A stretch of 64,000 nt of DNA from Thermoanaerobaculia bacterium (GCA_035996875.1 DASYJD010000013.1:114-64113), one strand, 5' to 3'. Shown: positions 20,883 to 64,000, counted from the first letter of the stretch. Notes: generated by a model from the sequence alone, not told the origin. A program made the numbers and translations.

Positions 20883-20972
20883 ATGGCGGAGAGGGTGGGA
20901 TTCGAACCCACGGACCGGTTGCCCGGTCAACGGTTTTCGAGACCGTCCCATTCGACCGCTCTGGCACCTCTC
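20883..20972 (-). tRNA. tRNA-Ser (anticodon CGA), long variable arm
   Basis: Reverse complement GGAGAGGTGCCAGAGCGGTCGAATGG...GGTTCGAATCCCACCCTCTCCGCCA. Anticodon loop CT-CGA-AA, T-loop GGTTCGAATCC, encoded CCA. Confidence 0.8.
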
Positions 20973-20994
20973 CGGTAATTTGTCTGTCGAGATC

Positions 20995-21084
20995 GTGGCG
21001 GAGAGAGTGGGATTCGAACCCACGGTAGAGTTTCCCCTACACACGCTTTCCAAGCGTGCTCCTTAAGCCACTCGGACATCTCTC
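20995..21084 (-). tRNA. tRNA-Ser (anticodon GGA), long variable arm
   Basis: Reverse complement GGAGAGATGTCCGAGTGGCTTAAGGAGCACGCTTGGAAAGCGTG...GGTTCGAATCCCACTCTCTCCGCCA. Anticodon loop TT-GGA-AA. Confidence 0.8.
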
Positions 21085-21108
21085 CCGATCCTGCAAAGAA
21101 CCTTGTCG

Positions 21109-23686: not shown

Positions 23687-23932
23687 TCTATGGAATGCCT
23701 GCCCGCCCCCGCCTGTTGTTCCAGATCCCGGACTCCGGGCTACGTTCTTTACTTCCCTGATCCCACGACGTAGCATGAGCAGCCTTAGGACAGTGGCCCA
23801 CGAAGGGTTCGGGTCCTGTGCATCGGCCGATACCGAACCTCGTCAGGCCCGGAAGGGAGCAGCGATAAGGTATCCGGACGAGTGCCGCAGATTCACCGGA
23901 ACCCTTCGTTGACCACTGCCGGCAAAACACCC

Positions 23933-51394: not shown

Positions 51395-52510
51395 TCAATC
51401 TGTAAAAGCAGTTTTCATCGACTCTGCCCGCCGCCGGGACTCCGCAGCCTCCCGCTTCACCGCCTCCTCGTTCCACTCGGCGGGCGACTGTACCCATCCC
51501 TGGAGGTTGCGGTGGACCAGGTCGGCGATGACGCGAATGTGGTCCGGCCGGTCGTTCAGGGCGGGGATGTAGCGGTAGCGCTCGCCTCCGGCGTGGACGA
51601 AGACCTCCCGGTTCTCCTGGTCGATCTCCTCGATGGTTTCCAGGCAATCGGCCGAGAAGCCGGGGCAGGCGACGTCGAGCTTCCGGAGGCCGGATTTCGC
51701 CAACGCGATAATCGTCTCGTTCGTGTAGGGTCTCAGCCACTCCTCCTTGCCGAAAAGCGACTGAAAGGATACCTGCCACTGCTCGGGGGGAAGCTGCAGC
51801 TCCTCGGCGGCCAGCCGGGCGAGCTTGTGGCACTCGCAGAAGTAGGGGTCGCCCGCCAGGAAATAGCGCTTGGGAATACCGTGGAAAGAGAAGAGGAGCT
51901 TCTCCGGCGGTCCTTCGCGGTCCCAAAGCTCGCGGATGCTCGCCGCCAGCGCCCGGATGTAGGCGGGATCGTCGTGGTAATGATGGATGGTGCGGATCTC
52001 CGGCACCCACCGCCAGGTCGTCAGCTCGGCGGCCACGGCATCGATCGTCGAGCCGGTCGTCACCGCCGCGTACTGGGGATAGAGCGGCAGCACCAGAAGG
52101 CGGCGGCAGCCCTTGGCGGCGAGCTCGCGCAACGCCGCTCGCACCGAAGGGTTGCCGTAGCGCATGCCGACCGCCACGTGGACCGGCGTGCCGATCTCCC
52201 GCCGCAGCATCTCCTGAAGCGCCGCCGCCTGTCGGTTGGTGATGACGAGGAGTGGCGAGCCCTCCGCCGTCCAGACCTTTTTATAGAGCGCCGCCGACTT
52301 GGGCGGCCGGGTGGTGAGAATGAACAAATGGAGGATCAGCCACCAGAGCACCCGCGGCAGCTCGATGACCCGCGGATCGAGAAGGAACTCGCGAAGATAG
52401 CGCCGCAGCGCCGGCGAATCCGGCGCGTCGGGCGTCCCCAGATTGGCCAGGAGAACGCCCACCGCAGGCACCTCCCCATGCTGGAAGTCGGGTTGACCGA
52501 AGTACTTCAT
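51395..52510 (-). CDS. hemH: ferrochelatase
   Basis: VGVLLANLGTPDAPDSPALRRYLREFLLDPRV...LPLYPQYAAVTTGS...FSFHGIP matches the HemH consensus. The upstream extension of the track ORF was rejected. Confidence 0.9.
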   Translation of the reverse strand: MKYFGQPDFQHGEVPAVGVLLANLGTPDAPDSPALRRYLREFLLDPRVIELPRVLWWLILHLFILTTRPPKSAALYKKVWTAEGSPLLVITNRQAAALQEMLRREIGTPVHVAVGMRYGNPSVRAALRELAAKGCRRLLVLPLYPQYAAVTTGSTIDAVAAELTTWRWVPEIRTIHHYHDDPAYIRALAASIRELWDREGPPEKLLFSFHGIPKRYFLAGDPYFCECHKLARLAAEELQLPPEQWQVSFQSLFGKEEWLRPYTNETIIALAKSGLRKLDVACPGFSADCLETIEEIDQENREVFVHAGGERYRYIPALNDRPDHIRVIADLVHRNLQGWVQSPAEWNEEAVKREAAESRRRAESMKTAFTD

Positions 52511-52530
52511 GGCGGGGGTGAGTCTACCCC

Positions 52531-53736
52531 CTACCGCCGACTGTCCAGCAATCCGAACACCTCCCCCACCTGTTCCCACCCGATCCGCATCAGGAAGGTG
52601 TTGTTCCTGCCGTAGGACTTGCTGCCGAGGATGAAGAAGCCGGGCTCGGGGTTGGTGAGGGTGTCGGCTCCGTGGGTGGTCTGGGTCAGGCAGTCCGAGC
52701 TGCCCGCCCCCAGGAGGGCTCCGGAGAGCTTGATGGGTCCGCAGGTGGCGTAGCACTCGTGGACCTGAAGCTGGCGGTAGAGCCCGTGGTCGCCCACCGC
52801 GCCGGTGAGAGAGAGGATGCGGTCCACCTCGATGGATTCGGGGCCCGAGTCGTTCCTTAGAACGACGTGGAACCGGCCATTCGGCTTCGAGACCTCCTCG
52901 ACCGCCGCGCCGCGCCGGACCTCGAAGGCCGGCGAGGTCCCTGCCGCCAGCGCGGCAGCCTCGGCGGCGAGGCCCGCCCGCTCCGGAAGCGGATCGCCCG
53001 GATGAGTGCCCCAGCTCGGCTTGGGATTGCGCAGCAGCCAGATCACCTCGGTGCCCGGCGCCTCCTGCGCCAACCGGGCGAGATCGCGGGCGGCGGTCTG
53101 CGCCGAGTGACCGGCACCGGCGAGGAGAATGCTCTTGCCGGCCCAGTCGGCCGCTTCCCGCTCAAAGTCGGGGATATTGCGCCGGATTTCGCCCTCGAAG
53201 CTGCGCTCGCCGGGGGCGGGGATGCCGGCGTCGCCCAGGGTGTTGGGATGTCCCCACGAGCCGGTCGCGTCGATCACCAGGTCCGCCGTCTCCGTCCATT
53301 CCCGACCGGAGTCATCCGAGAGAAGCAGGCGGAAGGGCCGTCGGCCGCGCTCGGCCGTCGCGATCTCCTCGTGTTTGAGCAGTCCCTCGCGGCCGATCCC
53401 GAGCACGCGGGTGCCAAGCCGCAGTCGGGGGGCGACCTCCGGCAGCCCTGCGAGGGGCTCCAACAGCCGCTCAGCGAGCTCGCGTCCGGTGGGGCACTCG
53501 GCGCCGTCCGGCGTCTCGATGCCCGCCGCGGCAAGATGGCTGCGCATGCGGGCGGATACGTTCATCTCCCAGGGGGTGAAAAGGCGGACGTGCCCCCAGG
53601 CGCGGACGTTGCCGGCGACACCGGGCGCCGCCTCGTAGACCGTGAACGGATATCCCGCTTCGGCGGCGGCGAGGGCGGCTTCGAGGCCGGTGGGGCCGGC
53701 TCCCAGGATGGCGATATGGGGCTTGGAGTCACTCAT
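52531..53736 (-). CDS. FAD/NAD(P)-binding oxidoreductase (flavin monooxygenase-like)
   Basis: IAILGAGPTGLEAAL dinucleotide-binding fold at the N-terminus and a second GAGHSA motif. 401 aa. Confidence 0.6.
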   Translation of the reverse strand: MSDSKPHIAILGAGPTGLEAALAAAEAGYPFTVYEAAPGVAGNVRAWGHVRLFTPWEMNVSARMRSHLAAAGIETPDGAECPTGRELAERLLEPLAGLPEVAPRLRLGTRVLGIGREGLLKHEEIATAERGRRPFRLLLSDDSGREWTETADLVIDATGSWGHPNTLGDAGIPAPGERSFEGEIRRNIPDFEREAADWAGKSILLAGAGHSAQTAARDLARLAQEAPGTEVIWLLRNPKPSWGTHPGDPLPERAGLAAEAAALAAGTSPAFEVRRGAAVEEVSKPNGRFHVVLRNDSGPESIEVDRILSLTGAVGDHGLYRQLQVHECYATCGPIKLSGALLGAGSSDCLTQTTHGADTLTNPEPGFFILGSKSYGRNNTFLMRIGWEQVGEVFGLLDSRR

Positions 53737-53759
53737 GTCGTCTCTCCTCATTCCTTGTC

Positions 53760-54722
53760 TCAAAAGCGGGAAGCCGCGCGCTCGCGGGCGGGCAGGATCT
53801 CCAGGCAGGTGGTCCACCAACCGGTGAGGACGGTCTCGACGAACTCTTCGGGTAGGCTTTCTCCGCGCATCTCGGCGGCCAACCCCTGATGATCGTAGCG
53901 CAAGGGCAAAAGCTCGACGCCCAAGCCTTCCTCGCGGGCCTCCAGCATCGCGAACCAGACGTTGGTGTTGCCGTCGTTGGCGGGCCGGCCAATCACGCCG
54001 ACGTTGATCAGGTCCCGGCCGGAGGGGAGGCGCCGGTGCCACTGCAGCCCGGTATGTGTGCAGAGGATGCCATCGCAGCGGTTCTGATCCAGTAAGACTT
54101 CCAGGAACGGCACCGGCGAGGTGCTTTGGAAGAGGAACTCGTTGATCCGCCGCGGCGAACCGTGAACCAGCAGCAGCTCCCGGTTCCCCAACCGCACCCG
54201 TCGCCGGCGGGGGAGCGTCCCCATCCAGGCTTTATACTCCGGCGAGCTGTTCCGTGCGGTGTAGCGGTAGGAGATCTCGGCGAAGTGGTTGTCCCGCGGG
54301 TCGGTGTAGCCGCAGTTGCAGTCCTCGCGGCCCGAGGCGAGGGACTCCTCGTAGTTGCCTTGAATGGCGAGCACCTCCCCGCGGACGAGGAGCGGCCACA
54401 CCTTTTCTGGATTGGGGCCAAAGGCACCTAGATCGCCGAGGCAGTAGACGGCCTCGGCACCCCGCCTCGCCGCCTCTGCCAGCACCTCCGTTAGCGCCAG
54501 GTGATTGCTGTAGACGCCGCCGAAGACGGCGATGCGGGAGTACGGCCCCTCGACCGGGGTAGGGTCGAAAACCGGCGTCCCGTAGGTCCGCAAGGCCGCC
54601 TCGCGCTCCTCGGGAGTCTGCGTCAAGCCGGCCTCCGCCGCCGCTTGGCGGAACGTGGCGAGGGGAACCAGCCTCTCTCCCCAGGTTGCCAAGCCCCGAT
54701 GGACGGTCAGCTTTTCCGGCAT
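53760..54722 (-). CDS. metallophosphoesterase (calcineurin-like phosphoesterase) family protein
   Basis: IAVFGGVYSNHLAL...CLGDLGAFGPNP...GNYEE...LLVHGSP metal-binding motif series. Confidence 0.65.
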   Translation of the reverse strand: MPEKLTVHRGLATWGERLVPLATFRQAAAEAGLTQTPEEREAALRTYGTPVFDPTPVEGPYSRIAVFGGVYSNHLALTEVLAEAARRGAEAVYCLGDLGAFGPNPEKVWPLLVRGEVLAIQGNYEESLASGREDCNCGYTDPRDNHFAEISYRYTARNSSPEYKAWMGTLPRRRRVRLGNRELLLVHGSPRRINEFLFQSTSPVPFLEVLLDQNRCDGILCTHTGLQWHRRLPSGRDLINVGVIGRPANDGNTNVWFAMLEAREEGLGVELLPLRYDHQGLAAEMRGESLPEEFVETVLTGWWTTCLEILPARERAASRF

Positions 54723-54731
54723 CTGGCTCTC

Positions 54732-55592
54732 TCAGGTCCGGCAGCTCACGCCGTAGACGTGACACGTCCAGCAAGCCGGGTGCTCCAGCGGGAAGGCGCC
54801 CAGCGTGTCGGCGAGAGTCTCGCCCATCTTCGCCGTGGGCTCGTTGACCAGGATAGGGCAGACCCAGACGCCCTGGTCGGTGACCATCCGGCACCCGCTG
54901 CACTGGAGGTGGTCCCAGCCTCCCTCGGGCGCGTCGCCCTCCTTCAGTCGCTGCCAGCTCTCGTAGGAGCCGGCGCGCTCGGCCTCGGCGCCGATCTGGA
55001 AGACGGGCAGCACCTTGAGCCGCGGCCGCTCGATTCCCATCGACCGCAGCAGCGCGAAGAACCTCTCCTTGCCTGCGTCGGTCGTGGCCTCCCGGCAGAC
55101 CTCCGTCACCGTGATCACGGGGTTCAGGCCGGCATCGTGCAGGTTGCGCACGCCGGCCAGGATGCGCTCGAAGGTTCCGGCGCCGCGGACGGGATCGTTG
55201 CTCTCGGCGTCGTAGCCGTCCATGGAGACCCGGAGATCGAGCGAGTACTCGGTGGCATCGGCGAACGTCTTGAGGCGGGCGCAACGGGCTGGGTCGAGCA
55301 GCAGGCCGTTGGTCAGCACCGTGGCAGGACCCACGGCGAGCGTCGCTTCCAGGATGGCCTCCATCTCGGGGTTGAGGAACGGCTCGCCGCCGGTGAAGTA
55401 GTACTCGCGCACGCCGAGCCGCGACGCCTCAGCCAGATACCGCTGCACCTCGGCCAGGCTCAGAAACTCGTGCGTGTGATTGGTGGGCGAGCAGGAGACG
55501 AAGCAGTGGGTGCAGGCCAGGTTGCAGACCGTGCCGCCCACCTGGAACCACAAGGTGTCGAGCGATTTCAGGGTGACTTCAGGGACGTTCAT
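54732..55592 (-). CDS. radical SAM protein with C-terminal Cys-rich (SPASM/twitch-like) region
   Basis: CNLACTHC (CxxxCxxC) near the N-terminus. Additional cysteines in CSGCRMVTDQGVWVCPILV...CWTCHVYGVSC. Confidence 0.8.
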   Translation of the reverse strand: MNVPEVTLKSLDTLWFQVGGTVCNLACTHCFVSCSPTNHTHEFLSLAEVQRYLAEASRLGVREYYFTGGEPFLNPEMEAILEATLAVGPATVLTNGLLLDPARCARLKTFADATEYSLDLRVSMDGYDAESNDPVRGAGTFERILAGVRNLHDAGLNPVITVTEVCREATTDAGKERFFALLRSMGIERPRLKVLPVFQIGAEAERAGSYESWQRLKEGDAPEGGWDHLQCSGCRMVTDQGVWVCPILVNEPTAKMGETLADTLGAFPLEHPACWTCHVYGVSCRT

Positions 55593-55648: not shown

Positions 55649-56092
55649 ATGAATGGCTTGCGCTATGATCGGCGAACCTTGAAACGCTTTCTCGCCTTCT
55701 CCGTGCCGCTTCTCCTTCTTGCCATGGCTCTCGACCGATTTGTCCTCGAAGCGGTCGGCCGGGCTCCCGACCCTTCCGCGCTCTCTCCCTCCGGAGTGAC
55801 GCGGTTACTGCCGGGCTGGGTCCTGCTCGCCACCTGGGTGCTGGAGGCCGTGGCCCTCTCGGCCCTCTACCTCCTCATTCAAGGACGGGGCGGAACGCGT
55901 TGGCTCAACGGCCTGCTCACCGGCTGGATCGCCTGGGTCTTCCGCGGCCCTCTGCTGGTGGTGACCGTGGTGGGAATGGCCGGCCTGCCTCATGGCCCCT
56001 GGTGGGCAATGGCCTTCTCCTGGCTCGTGCTCTACACCTTCTGCGGCCTTATCCTCGGTGGCGCCGCGGCTGCGTCGGGCCTCCAGTCCTGA
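55649..56092 (+). CDS. hypothetical integral membrane protein
   Basis: Four predicted TM segments. Directly upstream of the PKS cluster. Start uncertain (GTG 55622 or ATG 55649). Confidence 0.4.
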   Translation: MNGLRYDRRTLKRFLAFSVPLLLLAMALDRFVLEAVGRAPDPSALSPSGVTRLLPGWVLLATWVLEAVALSALYLLIQGRGGTRWLNGLLTGWIAWVFRGPLLVVTVVGMAGLPHGPWWAMAFSWLVLYTFCGLILGGAAAASGLQS

Positions 56093-56142
56093 ACCTCGCT
56101 CGGGTCCCCGGGGACTCACCTCCCCGGACGCTGGCAAGCATT

Positions 56143-57246
56143 GTGCTAGATTCCTTGCGGATTGAGCTTAGAGTCTTTTTGAACTTGAGAATAGCCGCCG
56201 TCGGGAGGGCGCTCCCACCTCACTACTACGACCAGGAGACGCTTCTCGCGGCTCTTCGGCAGCGTTGGTCGGACCGCTACTTCAATCTCGACCGCCTGGA
56301 GCGCCTGCACAAGAACGTCCTGGTTGGCGGACGCCACTTGGCCCTGCCGATCGATGAGTACGACTCCCTGACCACCTGGGGGAAGGCGAACGACGCCTGG
56401 ATCCGGGTAGCTCAGGAGGTCGGGGCCCGGGCGGTGCTGGACGGCCTGGCCAAGGCCGGGCTCTCCACCGCTGACGTGGACGCCCTGATCTTCGTCACCG
56501 TCACCGGCGTCGCCACCCCCTCGATCGACGCCCGCCTGATGAACATTCTGGGGCTGCGGTCCCGGGTCAAGCGGATGCCCATCTTCGGCCTCGGCTGCGT
56601 CGCCGGCGCCGCCGGCATCGCCCGGGCGGCCGACTACGTCCGCGCCTTCCCGGATCAGGTCGCCGTGCTCCTCTCCGTCGAGCTTTGCTCCCTTACCCTG
56701 CAGCCGGAGGATCTCTCCATTCCCAACCTCATCGCCTCGGGCCTCTTCGGCGATGGCGCGGCGGCGGCGGTGGTCACCGGCGCGGACCGACCGTCGACCG
56801 AGCCATCGAGCGGGCCGCGGATCGTGGACAGCCGATCGGTCTTCTATCCAGATACCGAGCGGGTGATGGGCTGGGACATCTCCGAGACGGGGTTCAAAAT
56901 CGTCCTCTCGGCGGACGTCCCCCTGGTGGCACGGGACCGGCTGCGCCCGGACGTCGACTCGTTCCTGGCCGAGCACGGCCTCACTGTTTCCGACATCGGA
57001 TCCTGGGTCTGCCACCCCGGAGGCCCCAAGGTGCTGGAAGCCATGCAGGAGTCGCTGGACCTCCCGCCCGGAGCGCTGGACGTGACTTGGCGCAGCCTCC
57101 AGGAAGTGGGAAACCTCTCCTCGACCTCGGTGCTGATGGTGCTGGCCGAGACCCTGGAGAACCACCGCCCGCCGCCGGGCAGCTACGGTGTCCTGCTCGC
57201 CATGGGCCCGGGCTTCTGCTCCGAGCTGGTGCTGCTCCAGTGGTGA
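56143..57246 (+). CDS. type III polyketide synthase (chalcone/stilbene synthase superfamily; alkylresorcinol/alkylpyrone synthase-like)
   Basis: RIAAVGRALPPH N-terminus, active-site Cys context PIFGLGCVAGAAG, and C-terminal WVCHPGGPKVL and GPGF motifs. Start uncertain (GTG 56143, TTG 56179 or TTG 56185). Confidence 0.85.
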   Translation: MLDSLRIELRVFLNLRIAAVGRALPPHYYDQETLLAALRQRWSDRYFNLDRLERLHKNVLVGGRHLALPIDEYDSLTTWGKANDAWIRVAQEVGARAVLDGLAKAGLSTADVDALIFVTVTGVATPSIDARLMNILGLRSRVKRMPIFGLGCVAGAAGIARAADYVRAFPDQVAVLLSVELCSLTLQPEDLSIPNLIASGLFGDGAAAAVVTGADRPSTEPSSGPRIVDSRSVFYPDTERVMGWDISETGFKIVLSADVPLVARDRLRPDVDSFLAEHGLTVSDIGSWVCHPGGPKVLEAMQESLDLPPGALDVTWRSLQEVGNLSSTSVLMVLAETLENHRPPPGSYGVLLAMGPGFCSELVLLQW

Positions 57247-57818
57247 GCGACACCCGCATTCTCTACACCCTGCTGGTGGCGCTGGTCGCCGTGGGCCGCC
57301 TCTTCGAGCTGCGGATCGCGTCCCGCAACCGCCGGCACCTCCTGGCGCGGGGCGGTGTCGAGGTGGCGCCCGGGCACTACCCGTGGATGGTGGCGCTCCA
57401 CACCGCGCTCATCGTCTCGTGCCCTTTGGAGGTCTGGTTTCTTCGACGGCCGTTTGTGCCCCTCCTCGCCGGGGCGATGTTCTTCCTTCTAGTAGTCGCC
57501 GCGGCGCTGCGGTGGTGGGTGATCTCGACACTCGATGGCCGCTGGACCACCCGCATCGTCGTCCTGCCGGGCGTGCCTCCGGTCACCGGCGGCCCTTATC
57601 GTTTCCTGCGCCACCCCAACTACCTCGCCGTGATTCTGGAGATCTTCTCGCTGCCGATGATTCACACCGCCTGGCTCACGGCGTTCGTCTTCAGCCTGGC
57701 AGACGCCTTGCTTCTCCGAGTGCGGATTCGAGCTGAGGAAGCGGGGCTCTCCCAGGTCTCCGGTTACGAGGCCGCTTTCGCGGACCGGTCGCGATTGATC
57801 CCAGGGGGAGGAGGGTAA
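57243..57818 (+). CDS. isoprenylcysteine carboxyl methyltransferase (ICMT) family membrane methyltransferase
   Basis: Multi-TM protein with C-terminal GPYRFLRHPNYLAVILEIFSLP, the ICMT/PEMT SAM-binding signature. GTG start overlaps the PKS stop. Confidence 0.75.
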   Translation: MSDTRILYTLLVALVAVGRLFELRIASRNRRHLLARGGVEVAPGHYPWMVALHTALIVSCPLEVWFLRRPFVPLLAGAMFFLLVVAAALRWWVISTLDGRWTTRIVVLPGVPPVTGGPYRFLRHPNYLAVILEIFSLPMIHTAWLTAFVFSLADALLLRVRIRAEEAGLSQVSGYEAAFADRSRLIPGGGG

Positions 57819-58060
57819 TGAGCGATGAGGTGATTCTGGCCGGGATCGGCGAGGTGGCCCGAGTGCATCTCGGGTGGGAGGGGATCGTCACGCCGGAGCT
57901 GCGCCTGATCGAGGACCTGCGGCTCGATTCCATCCGTCTCCTCACCCTGGCGGCCGAGGTAGAAAACCGCTTTCGTGTCCTCCTCGACGAGGGAGACGAG
58001 GCGGGAATTGAGACTGTGGGCGACCTGGTCGCCGTCGTGCGGGGAAAGCTCGATGCCTGA
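57818..58060 (+). CDS. acyl carrier protein
   Basis: 80 aa with LRLDSIRLLTL (phosphopantetheine-attachment DSL-type motif). ATG overlaps the upstream stop (TAATG). Confidence 0.7.
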   Translation: MSDEVILAGIGEVARVHLGWEGIVTPELRLIEDLRLDSIRLLTLAAEVENRFRVLLDEGDEAGIETVGDLVAVVRGKLDA

Positions 58061-59768
58061 GACGCCTGACATGCCTGAAACATCCGAAGGCATCCTCGAC
58101 TGGCTGGAGCAGGCCGGCCGCCGCCCGGAAGGAGGGCTGCGCTTCATCGACCGGGCCGAGAAGGCCACCTGGTTCGGCTGGGCCGAGGTCCGCGCGCGGG
58201 CTCTCGCCGCGTGCGGCGGCCTGCAGGCGCTGGGTGTCGAGCGCGGCGACCGCGTGGCCCTGGTCTTCCCCACCGGCATCGACTTTTTTACCGCCTTCTT
58301 CGGCGCCCTGCTGGCCGGCGCCGTGCCGGTGCCCCTCTACCCGCCGGCGCGCCTGGGCCGCACCGAGGAGTATCTACGCCGCACGGCGAGGATGTTGGAG
58401 CGCTCCGGCGCCCGGCTCGTCCTGGCCGAATCCCGCGTCTGCCGGAAACTCGGCGGGGCCGTTGAACCGGCGCTGGGCTGCCGGGCGCTGACGGACCTCC
58501 CCTTGGGAACGGCGCGGCCGGTCCAAGCCTTCCCTGCGGATCTCGCCCTGATCCAGTTCTCCTCCGGCACGACGGTCGATCCCAAACCCGTGGCGCTCAG
58601 TCACCGTGCCGTCGCGGCCCAGGCGGAGATCCTCGCCAGCTTCTGGCCCGACACGACGGAGCTGCGCCAGAGCTGCGTCTCCTGGCTGCCGCTCTACCAC
58701 GACATGGGATTGATCGGCTGCGTCTTCCCGGCCCTGGCGCGGGATGCGGGCCTGACGCTCTTCGCCCCGGAGCTGTTCGTCGCCCGCCCGGCCCTCTGGC
58801 TGCGGACCCTCTCGCGTTACCGTGCCACGATCTCGCCGGCCCCCAACTTTGCCTATAGCCTCTGCCTGACCCGGATCTCGGACGCCGAAATGGAGGGAGT
58901 GGACCTCTCCGGCTGGCAGACGGCCCTCAACGGCGCCGAGTCGATCTCGCCTGCGGTATTACGGGCGTTCTGCAACCGTTTCGCCAGCTGGGGTTTTCGG
59001 CCCGAGGCCATGACACCCGTCTATGGATTGTCGGAAGCGGCTCTCGCCGTCACCTTCTCGGACCTCGGCCAGCCGTTTCAAGTCACTCGCTTCGACCGCG
59101 AAGAGCTGGCCCGCGAGGGTCGGGCTCGGGCTTCGGCCGAAGGGAGGGAGATCGTCTCGGTGGGCCGGCCGGTCCCCGGGTTCCGCCTGCGGATCGTGGA
59201 CTCAGGAGGGCACGATCTGCCCGCCGGGGCCGTAGGCCGCGTCTGGATTCAAGGCCCATCCCTAATGGAAGGCTACCTCGGTGATCCGGAAGGTACGGAG
59301 CGCGCCCTGCGGGATGGCTGGCTGGACACGGGCGACCTGGGATTCCTGCACGACGGGGAGCTCTATCTGGCAGGCCGCGCCAAGGATGCCGTCATCCTGC
59401 GCGGCCGCAACCACGCACCCGAGGAGATCGAGCGGGCGGTGGACGAGGTGTCGGGGCTGCGCGCCGGGAGCGTCGTCGCCGTGAGCTGGCTGCCGGAGGA
59501 CGCTCCCGGCGAGGTGCTGGCCCTCTTCGTCGAAGCCACCCGGGAGGCGACGCCGGAGGAGCTCGCGGCCCTGCCCGACGCCTGCCGCGAAGCCGTCCTC
59601 GGCGCGACCGGACTCGCCGTGGACCGCCTCGAAGTACTGACGCCCGGTGCCCTGCCCCGCACCTCGTCGGGCAAGCTGCGCCGGGGGGAGACCCTGCGCC
59701 TCTACCTTGCTGGCGAGCTCGCCCTCCTGGAGCCCGCGGCCTCCCTGCTGATGGGAGCCCTGGCGTGA
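58053..59768 (+). CDS. fatty acyl-AMP ligase (FAAL) / long-chain acyl-CoA synthetase family
   Basis: FSSGTTVDPKPV (AMP-binding motif I), YGLSEA, TGDLG...GR.KD motifs. An insertion-containing architecture typical of FAALs that load ACPs. Confidence 0.8.
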   Translation: MPETPDMPETSEGILDWLEQAGRRPEGGLRFIDRAEKATWFGWAEVRARALAACGGLQALGVERGDRVALVFPTGIDFFTAFFGALLAGAVPVPLYPPARLGRTEEYLRRTARMLERSGARLVLAESRVCRKLGGAVEPALGCRALTDLPLGTARPVQAFPADLALIQFSSGTTVDPKPVALSHRAVAAQAEILASFWPDTTELRQSCVSWLPLYHDMGLIGCVFPALARDAGLTLFAPELFVARPALWLRTLSRYRATISPAPNFAYSLCLTRISDAEMEGVDLSGWQTALNGAESISPAVLRAFCNRFASWGFRPEAMTPVYGLSEAALAVTFSDLGQPFQVTRFDREELAREGRARASAEGREIVSVGRPVPGFRLRIVDSGGHDLPAGAVGRVWIQGPSLMEGYLGDPEGTERALRDGWLDTGDLGFLHDGELYLAGRAKDAVILRGRNHAPEEIERAVDEVSGLRAGSVVAVSWLPEDAPGEVLALFVEATREATPEELAALPDACREAVLGATGLAVDRLEVLTPGALPRTSSGKLRRGETLRLYLAGELALLEPAASLLMGALA

Positions 59769-60868
59769 CCGATCTGTTGACGGATCTTTTGGTGGTCGGT
59801 GGCGGCCCCGCGGGGCTGGCGACCGCCATCCGCGCGCGCCTCGCCGGACTCAACATCACCGTGATCGACCGCGCCCGGCCGCCTATCGACAAGGCCTGCG
59901 GCGAGGGCTTGATGCCCGACGCCGTAGCGCGCCTGCGGGAGATCGGCGTCGAGCCGCGGGGCTTCCCCTTCCGCGGCATCCGCTATGTCGACGGCGACCT
60001 CCAGGCCGAGGGGCACTTTCCCGGCTCCGGCGGCCTCGGCGTACGCCGCACCGAGCTCCACGCCGCCCTCGTCCGCCGGGCGCAGGAAGTCGGCGTCGAT
60101 CTCCGCTGGGGCGTGAAGGCCGAGGGGCTTGACGCCGAAGGCATCCGGACAGACCAGGGGGCCCTCGCCGCCCGCTGGATCGTGGGAGCGGACGGCCTGC
60201 GCTCCCAGGTGAGGCGTTGGGCTGGGCTCGACGGGAGGTTGAGCGCGCTGCGACGCTTCGGCGTCCGCCGGCATTTCGCCGTGGCTCCCTGGAGCGACTG
60301 CGTCGAGGTCCACTGGGGGCCGGAATGTGAGGCCTATGTAACCCCGGTGGGCGGCGACGAAGTGGGGATCGCCATCCTCTGGAGCAGGCGGAAGGCCGGC
60401 TTCGACAATCTCCTGGAGAGCTTTCCAACCCTGAGGGAGAAGGTAGGGAACGCCCCAATCGCCTCCCGCGACCGCGGCACCGGCCCCCTCCGGCAGCAGG
60501 CGAGCGCGGTATCTAAGGGTCGCGTGGCCCTGGTGGGCGATGCCGCCGGGTATCTCGACGCCATCACCGGCGAAGGCTTGGCCGTCACTCTCCACGAGTC
60601 GGCGGCCCTGGTCGAGGCCCTCGCGGCGGGCGATCTCTCCCGCTACGCCGCCGCCCACCGGCGCATCAACCGTCTGCCCAACTTCATGACGTCGATGGTG
60701 CTTGCCCTGGAGCGGCGTCCCCGGCTGCGCCGCCGCGCCCTTCGCGCCCTCGCCGCCGAGCCCGCTCTCTTCGCCCGCCTTCTGGGCATCCACGCCCGCA
60801 CCTTGCCGCCCCGAGATTTTGGGTTCGACGGAGCCCTTCGGCTGGCCTGGAGACTGGTTGCAGCTTAA
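59765..60868 (+). CDS. FAD-dependent monooxygenase (UbiH/geranylgeranyl-reductase-like)
   Basis: VVGGGPAGLATAI (GxGxxG) and GADGLRSQVRR (GADGxxS) motifs. GTG start overlaps the FAAL stop. Confidence 0.75.
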   Translation: MTDLLTDLLVVGGGPAGLATAIRARLAGLNITVIDRARPPIDKACGEGLMPDAVARLREIGVEPRGFPFRGIRYVDGDLQAEGHFPGSGGLGVRRTELHAALVRRAQEVGVDLRWGVKAEGLDAEGIRTDQGALAARWIVGADGLRSQVRRWAGLDGRLSALRRFGVRRHFAVAPWSDCVEVHWGPECEAYVTPVGGDEVGIAILWSRRKAGFDNLLESFPTLREKVGNAPIASRDRGTGPLRQQASAVSKGRVALVGDAAGYLDAITGEGLAVTLHESAALVEALAAGDLSRYAAAHRRINRLPNFMTSMVLALERRPRLRRRALRALAAEPALFARLLGIHARTLPPRDFGFDGALRLAWRLVAA

Positions 60869-60884
60869 ACAAGGAGAACTCGCA

Positions 60885-61478
60885 ATGCTCTGCCGCAGGA
60901 TCGCTCTCGCCCTCGTGTCCATGTTGGCCTTCGTTTCGATCCTCCCCGCCGAGCCGGTGACTTTCGAGCTCGACGCCGCAGCCACCACCATCGAGTTCAC
61001 CTTCGGCGCCACCCTCCACACGGTCGACGGCACGATACGCGTCAAGGAAGGATCGATTCATATCGATCCCGAAACCGGCACCGCCAGCGGCCGCATCGTC
61101 ATCGACGCCATCAGCGCCAAGACCGGCAACGACCGTCGAGACCGCAAGATGCACGAGAAGATCCTCGAGAGCCAGCGCTATCCCGAGATGATCTTCGAGA
61201 TCGAGCGGCTGAGCGGCAAGCTCAACCCTGTGGGCCAGAGCGAGATCGAGCTTCACGGCACCCTGGAGATGCACGGCACCCGCCGGCCCCTCGCCCTGCC
61301 GGCGACCGTCATGACCTCCGACGGCAAGACGGTGACCGGCACCGGCATGCTCATCCTCTCCTATCGGGATTGGGGGCTCGCCGATCCGAGCGTCTTCATC
61401 TTGCGGGTGGAGAAGGAGGTGCACGTGACCGTGAAGGCCGTGGGGCGGATCTCGGACGGGACTTCGCCTGGGGAGTAG
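60885..61478 (+). CDS. YceI-family polyisoprenoid/lipid-binding protein
   Basis: AAGGAG RBS, signal peptide, and the YceI beta-barrel signature (ATTIEFTFGATLHTVDGTI...GNDRRDRKMHEKILESQRYPEMIFE). Confidence 0.8.
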   Translation: MLCRRIALALVSMLAFVSILPAEPVTFELDAAATTIEFTFGATLHTVDGTIRVKEGSIHIDPETGTASGRIVIDAISAKTGNDRRDRKMHEKILESQRYPEMIFEIERLSGKLNPVGQSEIELHGTLEMHGTRRPLALPATVMTSDGKTVTGTGMLILSYRDWGLADPSVFILRVEKEVHVTVKAVGRISDGTSPGE

Positions 61479-61527: not shown

Positions 61528-61959
61528 ATGACGACTGTACATAACGTAGCGGCCTACATCCTGCAAAAGCAGGGTGAAATGACCGCTATGAAGCTCCAGA
61601 AGCTCGTCTATTACTCTCAAGCCTGGTCGCTCGTCTGGGATGAGGAGCCTCTGTTTGCCGAACGGGTCGAAGCCTGGGCCAATGGTCCCGTGGTTCCCGA
61701 TCTCTACCGTGAGCACAAAGGGCAGTTCAAGGTCGGTTCATGGCCGCGAGGAAACCCCGAGGCCTTGTCGGCAGTCCATCGCGAGACGATCGACTCCGTG
61801 CTTGGCTACTACGGAGACAAGGCTTCCCAGTGGCTCAGCGACCTGACGCACCGGGAAGATCCCTGGCTCGACGCCCGCCGCGGCCTTGCGCCCGGCGAAA
61901 GAGGCTCGACGGAGATCTCCCATGCCGCGATGGCAGAATATTACGGGAGCCTGACGTAG
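61528..61959 (+). CDS. Panacea-domain (DUF4065, SocA-like) putative antitoxin, copy 2
   Basis: KLQKLVYYSQAWSLVWDEEPLF...WANGPVVPDLY. Roughly 80% nucleotide and 75% amino-acid identity to copy 1 in the core. Confidence 0.75.
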   Translation: MTTVHNVAAYILQKQGEMTAMKLQKLVYYSQAWSLVWDEEPLFAERVEAWANGPVVPDLYREHKGQFKVGSWPRGNPEALSAVHRETIDSVLGYYGDKASQWLSDLTHREDPWLDARRGLAPGERGSTEISHAAMAEYYGSLT

Positions 61960-61970
61960 GCCCCCCGTTC

Positions 61971-62444
61971 ATGCCGAAGCAGCCGCGACAGAGAAGCTCT
62001 CCCTCCAGTCTCAAGCAGCCGGTCGCAGGGAAGGCCGTAAAGTCCTCCAAGGAGCCCAGGATCACCGCTGGGGAAGATCCCATGCGAGAGAGTCCCGCGT
62101 GGCACATCTCGACCCTGGAGACAGTGGACCCCTTCGGCTGGCACCGGATCGACACCGAGAAGCTGGGAGAGGTCCGCAGGAAGATCGGCGACTTCGAATC
62201 TATGACCTGGAATGAGATTCTCGTCGTCGCGAGTCACAGAAACCACGCGGTCTCCGTGGACCGGCTCTGCAAGGCCGCGCAGGATCGGTTGGAAGAGATC
62301 GGCCAGGGAGATGTCGACGAATTGGTCTCGCTACGGCTCTCCGGCCCGGAACGAATCTGGGGAATCCGCGCCGGCCGCATTTTGAAGATCCTGTGGTGGG
62401 ACCCGGAGCACGCGGTCTGCCCCGCCCTATTGAGACATACCTGA
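61971..62444 (+). CDS. putative toxin partner of Panacea antitoxin, divergent RelE/ParE-like fold, copy 2
   Basis: VDPFGWHRID...FESMTWNEILV...SLRLSGPERIWGIRAGRILKILWWDPEH is conserved with copy 1. A Lys/Pro-rich N-terminal extension is present only if the ATG at 61971 is used. The alternative ATG at 62082 gives a 120-aa product. Confidence 0.5.
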   Translation: MPKQPRQRSSPSSLKQPVAGKAVKSSKEPRITAGEDPMRESPAWHISTLETVDPFGWHRIDTEKLGEVRRKIGDFESMTWNEILVVASHRNHAVSVDRLCKAAQDRLEEIGQGDVDELVSLRLSGPERIWGIRAGRILKILWWDPEHAVCPALLRHT

Positions 62445-62462: not shown

Positions 62463-64000
62463 ATGAAGAAGCCCACCCACGACTGGTCCCCTTTTCTTGC
62501 CGACGAACGTCCGGTGGAGCGGTTCTCGCCCCATGGGCGGTACCGGCTGGCTCTGGCGTATGCCAACAGCTACCACATCGGCATGTCGAGCCTGGGGTTC
62601 CAGCGCGTCTACGAGCTGGTTCACCAACGGCCGGACTGGTCGTGCGAGCGCCTCTTCACGGACGGCATCGGCATGCCGGTCTCACTCGAGACCCGGCGAT
62701 CGATGAACGACTTCGGCTGCATCGCCTTCTCCGTCTCCTTCGAAGAGGACTACGTCAACCTCCTCCAGATGCTCGACCGCGCCCGCATCCCCTTGCGCCG
62801 GCGCGACCGCGGCCCGTGGGACCCGGTGATCGTCCTCGGCGGCTCTTGCGCCGCGATCAATCCGCTGCCGATGTCGGAGTTCGTCGACGTCTTCACCCTC
62901 GGCGCCGCCGAGAACGTCCTCCCTCACCTTCTCGACGCCCTGGAAGGCGAGGAAGGGCGGGAGGCGGTGATCGAGCGTCTGGCCGCTCTGGACGGCTTCT
63001 ACGTTCCCGCCTTCCATCATCCGGAGGACGAGGGGGACGAGCTGCCCAAGCTCAACAAGCTGGAGCTCACCGAAGAGCAGATGAAGCAGACGGGAAACCT
63101 GCCGACCACCTGCATCGTCACGCCGCGCACCGAGTTCTCCGAGAAGTTCCTCATCGAGATGTCCCGCGGCTGCCCCGAGAAGTGCCGCTACTGCTGGGCG
63201 ACCTTCGGCATGGGGCGCTTCCGCTGGCACCCGACGGACGAGATCCTCGCCGCGCTGGAGCGGGCCAAGCCCATCACCAACCAGCTCGGCTTCGTGGCCA
63301 CGGCCGTCGGCGACCATCCGGACATCGAACCCATTCTCCGCGAGGCCAACAAGCTCGGCTTCCGCACCTCGGTCTCGTCGATCCGCATCCCGGCGGTCAC
63401 CGAGGGCGTGCTCGAAGCCCTCCACGCCTCGGGCGACCGCTCCATCACCCTCGCGCCCGAAACCGGCACGGACGAGCTGCGGGTGAAGATGGGCAAGCCG
63501 ATCAAGAACGAGTTCCTGCTGGAGAAGATTCGCCTCATCTTCCGCCACGGCTTCACCCAGCTCAAGCTCTACTTCCTGATCGGCCTGCCGGGCGAGACCA
63601 TGGAGGACATCCAGGGCATCCTGGACCTCGCCGCCCGCGCCCGCGCCGTGATGCTCGACGAGCTGCCGAAGAAGGGGATGATCGGCAACATCCACCTCGG
63701 CACCAACGTGCTGGTGCCGAAGCCCTACACCCCCTGGCAGCGCGAGCCGATGGACGACGAGCGGAGCCTCAAGGAAAAGATCGCCGTCCTGAAGAAGGGC
63801 GTCTCCCGCATGCCCAACATCTCCCTGGGCTCCATCTCCGTCCGCCAAGCCATCTGGCAGACCTACATCAGCAAAGCCGGAAGCGGCGCCGCCGACGCCA
63901 TCGAAGCCGCCGCCCGGGGAGAATCGATCAGCTCCCTCCTCCACCGCTTCGCACCCCAGATCCAGCCGGAGGTCTATCAGCGGCTGGAGGGGGATTTACG
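62463..64000 (+). CDS. B12-binding-domain radical SAM protein (partial, runs off window end)
   Basis: IEMSRGCPEKCRYCW (CxxxCxxC) preceded by an N-terminal B12-binding-like domain (VIVLGGSCAAINPLPMSEF). The frame is open to the end of the window. Confidence 0.8.
   Translation, partial: MKKPTHDWSPFLADERPVERFSPHGRYRLALAYANSYHIGMSSLGFQRVYELVHQRPDWSCERLFTDGIGMPVSLETRRSMNDFGCIAFSVSFEEDYVNLLQMLDRARIPLRRRDRGPWDPVIVLGGSCAAINPLPMSEFVDVFTLGAAENVLPHLLDALEGEEGREAVIERLAALDGFYVPAFHHPEDEGDELPKLNKLELTEEQMKQTGNLPTTCIVTPRTEFSEKFLIEMSRGCPEKCRYCWATFGMGRFRWHPTDEILAALERAKPITNQLGFVATAVGDHPDIEPILREANKLGFRTSVSSIRIPAVTEGVLEALHASGDRSITLAPETGTDELRVKMGKPIKNEFLLEKIRLIFRHGFTQLKLYFLIGLPGETMEDIQGILDLAARARAVMLDELPKKGMIGNIHLGTNVLVPKPYTPWQREPMDDERSLKEKIAVLKKGVSRMPNISLGSISVRQAIWQTYISKAGSGAADAIEAAARGESISSLLHRFAPQIQPEVYQRLEGDL

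Follow-up and report, generated by a model that had tools for sequence, protein, structure and literature searches.

Our results support a model in which the seven genes at positions 55649–61478 on the plus strand of the window, a 64,000-nucleotide stretch of DNA from a Thermoanaerobaculia bacterium, contain an ftp-type phenolic-lipid operon that probably makes long-chain phenolic lipids or quinones. Its five-gene core consists of a type III polyketide synthase (PKS), an ICMT-type methyltransferase, a stand-alone acyl carrier protein (ACP), a fatty acyl-AMP ligase (FAAL) and an FAD monooxygenase. According to published descriptions, ftpABCDE of Myxococcus xanthus has the same genes in identical order (Hayashi et al. 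2011, ChemBioChem 12:2166; PMC5707447, PMC10896814, PMC5006271, PMC6836626). The core repeats the M. xanthus pathway and is a further example of it, not a new class of system. A sequence-only reading of this DNA had called the product unknown, which overstates the novelty because ftpABCDE has been characterised and an ftp-like cluster has already been reported in an acidobacterium.

All seven genes lie where that reading had placed them, with the domains it had named (Pfam and reading of the sequence). The identities of the PKS, methyltransferase, ACP, FAAL, FAD enzyme and YceI protein are borne out by Pfam and NCBIfam matches and by an independent JGI gene call, which lists an identical gene set on the source contig (3300035671 Ga0372940_0000009, 316 kb). 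There is indeed a gene at 55649, the proposed start of the cluster, but it encodes a small membrane protein (55649–56092, 147 aa, four predicted transmembrane helices) directly 5′ of the PKS gene and not the PKS itself, which begins after a 92-nt gap at a TTG at 56185 (56185–57246, 353 aa). Another in-frame TTG lies at 56179; the start at 56185 is backed by the JGI call, and the aligned codon in homologues is TTG, GTG or ATG. The PKS gene meets the gene for the ICMT-family integral membrane methyltransferase (57243–57818, 191 aa) at a GTGA overlap, with a second in-frame GTG 3 nt upstream at 57240. The methyltransferase and ACP genes (ACP 57818–58060, 80 aa) meet at a TAATG overlap, and a strong GGAGGAGGG sequence lies upstream of the ACP gene. 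The ACP gene overlaps both of its neighbours; its junction with the FAAL gene (58053–59768, 571 aa) is ATGCCTGA, an 8-nt overlap that becomes a 10-nt gap if the FAAL starts at its second ATG (58071, 565 aa), as in the JGI call. A GTGA overlap at the FAAL stop leads into the gene for the FAD-dependent oxidoreductase, a putative ring hydroxylase (59765–60868, 367 aa). The gene for the YceI-family lipid-binding protein (60885–61478, 197 aa) follows without overlap behind a 16-nt spacer with AAGGAGA, and therefore five genes, from the PKS to the FAD enzyme, are tightly coupled, not six as first proposed. Co-transcription, on which the operon had been said to depend, is probable given the overlapping genes. 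Consensus scans, which are uninformative here, gave no promoters inside the cluster and 5 terminator-like sites against 3.3 expected, no support for internal terminators. The intergenic region between the membrane protein and PKS genes is not conserved among relatives and gave no indication of a conserved promoter or regulatory RNA.

The PKS (Pfam Chal_sti_synt_N/C, 6e-21 and 4e-18) has close relatives in at least 590 species-level genomes, and the solved structure that it matches best is that of M. tuberculosis PKS11 (4jao; E 1e-108, 51% identity). The sequence-only reading had left the Cys-His-Asn triad to an alignment, in which Cys138, His277 and Asn310, together with Trp230, match PKS11 with identical numbering; the position of the catalytic cysteine is fixed by the PKS11 C138S mutant entry (4jat). 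A Trp at position 230 has been tied to resorcinol formation and cyclisation (PMC5916927, PMC9927152). The deposited annotation of PKS11 is alpha-pyrone synthase, so sequence does not settle the ring type, and the JGI family name is 'alkylresorcinol/alkylpyrone synthase'. Both points speak for a pathway to alkylpyrones like that of PKS11 or of Bacillus BpsA/BpsB, in which tri- or tetraketides would be lactonised and the ICMT enzyme would give pyrone methyl ethers and no quinone; BpsB is likewise an ICMT-type methyltransferase. We nonetheless consider this pathway quite improbable: the resorcinol-linked Trp230 is conserved (PMC5916927), the translationally coupled FAD enzyme would have no role in making pyrone methyl ethers, and the Myxococcus counterpart yields alkylresorcylic acid (PMC6836626).

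The enzymes encoded with the PKS also favour a phenolic-lipid operon. The methyltransferase (Pfam ICMT, 6.6e-28) has about four hydrophobic segments and can be aligned with the Ma-ICMT structure (4a2n) over the region of the G.Y...RHP.Y motif, and its gene is directly 3′ of the PKS gene in 41 of the best 80 related genome loci. The FAD enzyme (Pfam FAD_binding_3, 1.9e-17) carries GGGPAG at residue 12, GADG at 141 and GDAAG at 258, and its PDB matches are weak: class A flavin monooxygenases at 1.5e-9 and the geranylgeranyl reductase 3oz2 at 4e-8. In NCBIfam, the enzyme scores highest against the GG-reductase family, with 109 bits where 158.8 are required, and MenJ reaches 67 bits, also below cut-off. 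Together with 3oz2, these scores would fit a GG-reductase- or MenJ-type reductase that saturates the alkyl chain or acts on another lipid, the product then being a methylated alkylresorcinol and not a quinone. However, the reductase-family scores fall far below the family cut-offs, and the top PDB matches are aromatic hydroxylases. GG reductases carry a YxWxFP motif, which was not found on reading the translation by eye. The gene also occupies the hydroxylase slot of srs, pkq and ftp operons, which in the Myxococcaceae clusters is that of the 'monooxygenase'. A reductase here seems to us even less probable than an alkylpyrone pathway, and we retain a ring hydroxylase as the putative function.

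The ACP is a borderline match to Pfam PP-binding (1.7e-4; 22.2 bits, barely above the 20.8 cut-off) and scores up to 39 bits against NCBIfam ACP models, below their cut-offs; its positional counterparts in related loci share 44–92% identity with it, and Ser38, in LDSI, is the phosphopantetheine serine. The ligase matches Pfam AMP-binding (4e-60), and its top NCBIfam match is NF006624, 'fatty acyl-AMP ligase' (433 bits, below the 600 cut-off). Among its PDB matches, FAALs and FAAL-like loading domains fill the first 18 places, with E. coli FAAL 3pbk at 4e-85, and no CoA ligase scores better than 6e-30. Aligned with a comparator of the CoA-ligase type, the ligase shows a FAAL-specific insertion of 27 residues, and the FAALs of Myxococcaceae also carry an insertion at this point. 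Judged by its sequence, the operon ligase is a FAAL and not a CoA ligase. The idea that the FAAL and ACP would supply the PKS starter is sound by analogy with M. xanthus ftp, where FtpA uses acyl-ACP produced by the FAAL FtpD (PMC5707447). An M. xanthus FAAL–ACP pair, which may or may not be FtpD/FtpC, transfers acyl chains in vitro (PMC8460268). Published FAALs feed many PKS and NRPS pathways (PMC8460268), but it is hardly credible that the pair feeds another acceptor (lipopeptide, lipid A or ornithine lipid) and adjoins the PKS by chance, given that its codons overlap between the methyltransferase and FAD enzyme genes, that this position is kept in 34 of the 80 loci and two phyla, and that the flanks, out to ~10 kb each way, contain neither an NRPS nor a type I PKS gene. 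In related genomes the pair is always part of the PKS cluster, flanked by the methyltransferase and FAD enzyme genes, and never in the lipid A or lipopeptide context that the earlier reading had raised as an objection to itself.

The order PKS–ICMT–ACP–FAAL(–FAD enzyme) recurs in 34 of the 80 loci, from Thermoanaerobaculia, Holophagales, Vicinamibacterales and Myxococcota. Two Myxococcaceae-type contigs (L035 and L082) carry the PKS, methyltransferase, ACP, FAAL and FAD enzyme genes in this order, again overlapping, and encode proteins 41–64% identical to those of the window. These metagenome homologues, taken with published descriptions of gene order, suggest orthology to FtpA–E; the 120 matches listed with the L035 PKS as query were all metagenomic, and none was attributed to M. 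xanthus. The window differs from M. xanthus ftpABCDE in its host, a Thermoanaerobaculia-like acidobacterium, and in encoding two further proteins, a secreted YceI protein behind the core and a four-helix protein ahead of it, both absent from L035 and L082. Within the Acidobacteria, a type III PKS cluster of subgroup 22 'Mor1' was reported in 2016 whose sequences and gene order correspond to those of the alkylresorcylic acid cluster of M. xanthus, with identities of 58% (PKS), 54% (methyltransferase), 54% (ligase) and 47% (monooxygenase) (PMC5006271). Mor1 belongs to another acidobacterial lineage than the window; its description does not mention YceI or the four-helix protein, and its product was not detected (PMC5006271). 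Separately, an upstream Pyr_redox_2 gene (52531–53736, minus strand) was considered as a cluster-linked quinone reductase, but this link was dropped because its NCBIfam matches are only weak and generic flavoprotein ones and because conservation of the block does not extend beyond close relatives.

Other phenolic-lipid systems resemble the window in part. The comparison with srsABC drawn in the sequence-only reading is well founded: a PKS, a methyltransferase and a hydroxylase yield alkylbenzoquinones in Streptomyces and Mycobacterium (PMC9927152), and the window shares with Streptomyces griseus srsABC and Mycobacterium smegmatis pkqABC the core of PKS, methyltransferase and FAD hydroxylase, its ICMT methyltransferase and FAD enzyme being in one operon with a PKS that keeps the resorcinol Trp230. 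In contrast, srsABC and pkqABC are three-gene operons for which FAAL and ACP go unmentioned (PMC9927152), whereas here the methyltransferase and FAD enzyme genes are separated by those for an ACP and a FAAL. The window system works like srs and pkq but has another architecture. Cyanobacterial hidABC and the planctomycetal operons also combine an alkylresorcinol-synthase type III PKS with a methyltransferase and an FAD oxidoreductase, but in reversed order with the PKS last (methyltransferase–oxidoreductase–PKS in planctomycetes) and with no FAAL or ACP reported; in 'Saltatorellus ferox' the operon further encodes a lipid/isoprenoid-binding protein (PMC10896814). The type III PKSs of Azotobacter vinelandii ars (ArsB/ArsC) likewise use an ACP-bound long-chain starter, but one that comes from fatty acid synthesis (PMC5707447) and not from a FAAL and stand-alone ACP as in the window. 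The comparison with ars holds only by analogy because a type I FAS is absent here; neither an FAS nor a type I PKS gene was found in the 20-kb locus. In Azotobacter, ArsA/ArsD form a type I FAS dedicated to this starter, and we know of no methyltransferase or hydroxylase in the ars cluster.

In the pathway that we propose, the domain identities, catalytic residues, FAAL insertion, gene overlaps and conserved order are observed, and loading, extension, methylation and hydroxylation are modelled on homologous published systems. The FAAL would use ATP to activate a free long-chain fatty acid and load it onto the phosphopantetheine arm of ACP Ser38. Cys138 of the PKS would take the acyl chain from acyl-ACP, and the enzyme would add three malonyl units (possibly one methylmalonyl) and close the ring by aldol condensation, giving an alkylresorcylic acid or alkylresorcinol. 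The ICMT-family enzyme would then O-methylate the ring, possibly with decarboxylation, as in the case of SrsB. Finally, the FAD enzyme would hydroxylate the ring to a hydroquinone, which would oxidise to a methoxy-alkylbenzoquinone, and in M. xanthus, FtpA products are oxidised to alkylquinones (PMC10896814).

In the literature that we found, the YceI and four-helix accessories go beyond published descriptions of ftp-type operons. The YceI protein (Pfam YceI, 5.8e-23) has a signal-like N-terminal hydrophobic segment (residues 1–27) and a single PDB match, Thermus TT1927b (1wub, 4e-8). Its gene comes after the FAD enzyme gene at 5 loci that carry the complete cluster, and likewise at 18 loci from Terriglobia, where the layout is PKS–FAD–YceI. 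The four-helix protein has no Pfam or NCBIfam match, and its 322 homologues are all 'hypothetical'. In a profile search of 1.84 billion proteins, no more than 71 clusters (50% identity) were retrieved, and ten of these, the longest included, have no Pfam domain except one sub-threshold DUF3995 match. The protein has two conserved motifs, GLLTGWIAWVFRGPLLVV and PWW..FSWW.LY..CGL, and its AF2 model has four helices at low confidence (pLDDT 63.8, pTM 0.37). Its gene lies 5′ of the PKS gene on the same strand in 22 of the 80 loci, also where the divergent radical SAM gene is missing. From gene association alone, we tentatively suggest, at somewhat less than even confidence, that the two proteins handle the lipid: secreted YceI may bind it in the periplasm, and the four-helix protein may pass it across the membrane or hold it there.

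A broader view, which we hold to be rather unlikely, is that Acidobacteriota have built the ftp/pkq chemistry out into a make-and-deliver system in which YceI and the four-helix family move a polyketide quinone or phenolic lipid from the cytoplasmic membrane to the periplasm or outer membrane. If so, the lipid could be an envelope lipid or an alternative electron carrier, and YceI would be specifically dedicated to the lipids of type III PKSs, a partnership that fits because YceI recurs in two independent layouts, PKS–ICMT–ACP–FAAL–FAD–YceI and PKS–FAD–YceI. In summary, our analysis adds a well-supported and probably functional ftp-type operon to the Thermoanaerobaculia, a largely uncultured soil lineage, and indicates that such operons are common across Acidobacteriota and Myxococcota. 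The linkage of YceI and a lineage-restricted four-helix protein to PKS operons offers a testable lead on lipid handling or export and on the ligands of YceI proteins.

We consider it probable that the cluster at 55649-61478 encodes a route to a lipid quinone in which a fatty acyl-AMP ligase (FAAL) and an ACP would supply a type III PKS, followed by an ICMT-family methyltransferase and a FAD enzyme; judged against characterized systems, this is the likeliest pathway. The gene set was drawn from mechanical ORF lists and a reading of the junction sequences, in a stretch of 68% G+C. A small membrane protein of 147 aa (55649-56092), which has no Pfam or NCBIfam match, precedes six genes whose products do: the PKS (56185-57246; 353 aa), methyltransferase (57243-57818; 191 aa), ACP (57818-58060; 80 aa), FAAL (58053-59768; 571 aa), FAD enzyme (59765-60868; 367 aa) and a YceI protein (60885-61478; 197 aa), all seven on the forward strand. 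The membrane protein gene is identical in JGI contig 3300035671 Ga0372940_0000009 (316 kb; one gene compared), and independent gene calls on that contig give the same cluster genes, differing only in nearby in-frame starts of the ICMT, FAAL and YceI genes.

The sequence-only reading had described translational coupling across six genes, and the overlaps that it cited are present: GTGA at PKS/ICMT, TAATG at ICMT/ACP and GTGA at FAAL/FAD enzyme. The ACP and FAAL genes overlap by 8 nt, or are separated by 10 nt when FAAL starts at its second ATG. The remaining junctions needed correction. Position 55649 opens the membrane protein gene and not the PKS; the PKS begins at TTG 56185, 92 nt past that gene, where homologues have an aligned TTG, GTG or ATG. 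YceI, supposed to overlap as well, instead follows a 16-nt spacer and has its own AAGGAGA site. No obvious Shine-Dalgarno sequence lies upstream of TTG 56185. Among homologues, the spacer between the membrane gene and the PKS ranges from 9 to 480 nt and its sequence is not conserved.

The PKS shares 51% identity with Mycobacterium tuberculosis PKS11 (E = 1e-108), and its Cys138, His277 and Asn310 carry the same residue numbers as their PKS11 counterparts, the catalytic Cys being fixed by a deposited C138S mutant. Database relatives of the PKS number more than 8000, and those nearest to it are labelled "alkylresorcinol/alkylpyrone synthase" or come from Thermoanaerobaculia or Acidobacteria MAGs. 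The window enzyme also conserves Trp230 in an MGWD motif; this Trp is reported to be essential for resorcinol formation by ArsB and is conserved in FtpA, SrsA, PKS10 and PKS11 (PMC5916927; PMC9927152). An alkylpyrone product, which the database labels would accommodate, is a minor alternative beside the retained Trp.

FAALs and loading domains of FAAL type make up the 18 top PDB matches of the ligase (E. coli FAAL, 4e-85), whereas the best CoA ligase reaches 6e-30. In an alignment with two Myxococcaceae homologues and the CoA-ligase-type enzyme of a related locus (L032), the window ligase carries a 27-residue insertion (FQVTRFDREELAREGRARASAEGREIV) where the FAAL-specific insertion sits, and both Myxococcaceae ligases have a 25-residue insertion at the identical site. 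The ACP is divergent, clearing the Pfam cut-off of 20.8 with a score of 22.2 bits, and retains Ser38 within LDSI. The methyltransferase aligns to an archaeal ICMT structure over the cofactor-binding region. The FAD enzyme, with GGGPAG, GADG and GDAAG motifs, is poorly placed by sequence alone: its matches to aromatic hydroxylases (1.5e-9) and geranylgeranyl reductases are weak, and all fall below family cut-offs. That it is a reductase, as the second group of matches would have it, is a minor possibility next to the ring hydroxylase expected from comparable gene sets.

These comparable sets are the Streptomyces griseus srsABC and Mycobacterium smegmatis pkqABC clusters, which share the PKS-methyltransferase-hydroxylase logic of the window and yield alkylbenzoquinones ("polyketide quinones") (PMC9927152). 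The five-gene core, from PKS to FAD enzyme, matches the arrangement given for Myxococcus xanthus ftpABCDE in published accounts, which name alkylresorcylic acid as the FtpA product (PMC6836626) and describe oxidation of the pathway product to alkylquinones (PMC10896814). The pathway logic is to that extent already known. A M. xanthus FAAL-ACP pair (UniProt Q1CXX0/Q1CXW9) that may be FtpD/FtpC, in a paper silent on that identity, transfers acyl chains in vitro (PMC8460268), and a genome of Acidobacteria subgroup 22 had earlier yielded an ftp-like cluster by antiSMASH (PMC5006271). By its Myxococcaceae homologues and published gene orders, rather than the FtpA-E sequences themselves, the window cluster is a predicted member of the ftp group.

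By analogy with these characterized homologues, from which the chemistry is taken, FAAL would adenylate a fatty acid and load it onto the ACP; the acyl-ACP would prime the PKS for three extensions, with aldol condensation closing the ring. The ICMT enzyme would then O-methylate the ring, and the FAD enzyme would hydroxylate it to a hydroquinone that is oxidized to the quinone. Support for the phenolic-lipid interpretation first offered for this cluster comes from direct observation of its domains, catalytic residues, gene coupling and synteny.

A scan of species-representative genomes gave at least 590 confirmed PKS relatives, and the window proteins were compared by tblastn with the best 80 loci. 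Thirty-four of these 80 show the order PKS-ICMT-ACP-FAAL, in most cases with the FAD enzyme next; they come from Thermoanaerobaculia, Holophagales, Vicinamibacterales and Myxococcota, and most exceptions are truncated at contig ends. The five overlapping genes recur in two Myxococcaceae-type contigs (L035, L082), with L035 proteins 64/48/44/52/41% identical to those of the window. A different, self-contained unit, PKS-FAD-YceI, appears in 18 of the 80, mostly Terriglobia (Acidobacteriaceae, Bryobacterales), and within 9 kb downstream of it no homologue of the methyltransferase, ACP or FAAL was detected; in one (L050, 8004-10777) it lies between unrelated opposite-strand genes. That the FAAL/ACP pair serves some other pathway is a minor possibility.

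Just past YceI lie a SocA/Panacea-domain antitoxin gene (61528-61959, forward) and an adjoining 157-aa partner (61971-62444, forward), with a GC fraction of 0.61-0.63 against 0.68. Homologues of neither were detected in the best 80 loci, and the closest relative (L001) passes from YceI directly to the next gene; 61528-62444 looks like a strain-specific toxin-antitoxin insertion. A Radical_SAM_N2 plus Radical_SAM protein (520 aa; 62463-64000, forward, running past the window end) follows, as it does the cluster in L001-L006, L011 and L028. Upstream, a divergent reverse-strand block (51395-55592) encodes a radical SAM protein (top NCBIfam match "Rv1681 family", far below cut-off), a metallophosphoesterase, a Pyr_redox_2 flavoprotein and ferrochelatase. 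Only close relatives in Thermoanaerobaculia have this block beside the cluster, at times 2-5 kb away, and domains, family matches and related loci gave no sign that the two are functionally linked. A pair of neighbouring tRNA-Ser genes (20884-21085, reverse; anticodons CGA and GGA) and a small SRP RNA (23807-23905, forward) are ordinary housekeeping genes unrelated to the cluster.

The complete seven-gene layout is confined, among the best 80 loci, to five close relatives (L001, L002, L007, L008, L011). The membrane protein gene lies directly upstream of the PKS in 22 of the 80, some of them without the divergent radical SAM gene, and thus tracks the PKS. Its family comprises 322 homologues, all unnamed, and a search of 1.84 billion proteins gave just 71 clusters at 50% identity; Trp/Pro-rich motifs are strongly conserved, the AF2 model has four helices at low confidence, and a search for informative domain fusions found none. 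The YceI protein has a signal-like N-terminus, and Thermus TT1927b, a polyisoprenoid-binding protein, is the one relative of it with a solved structure. YceI goes unmentioned in the literature ranking top for YceI with type III PKS or alkylresorcinol. Recurrent gene association suggests that the YceI and four-helix proteins may bind or traffic the lipid. What is modestly new here is the recurring YceI partnership, together with a small, lineage-restricted membrane protein family.
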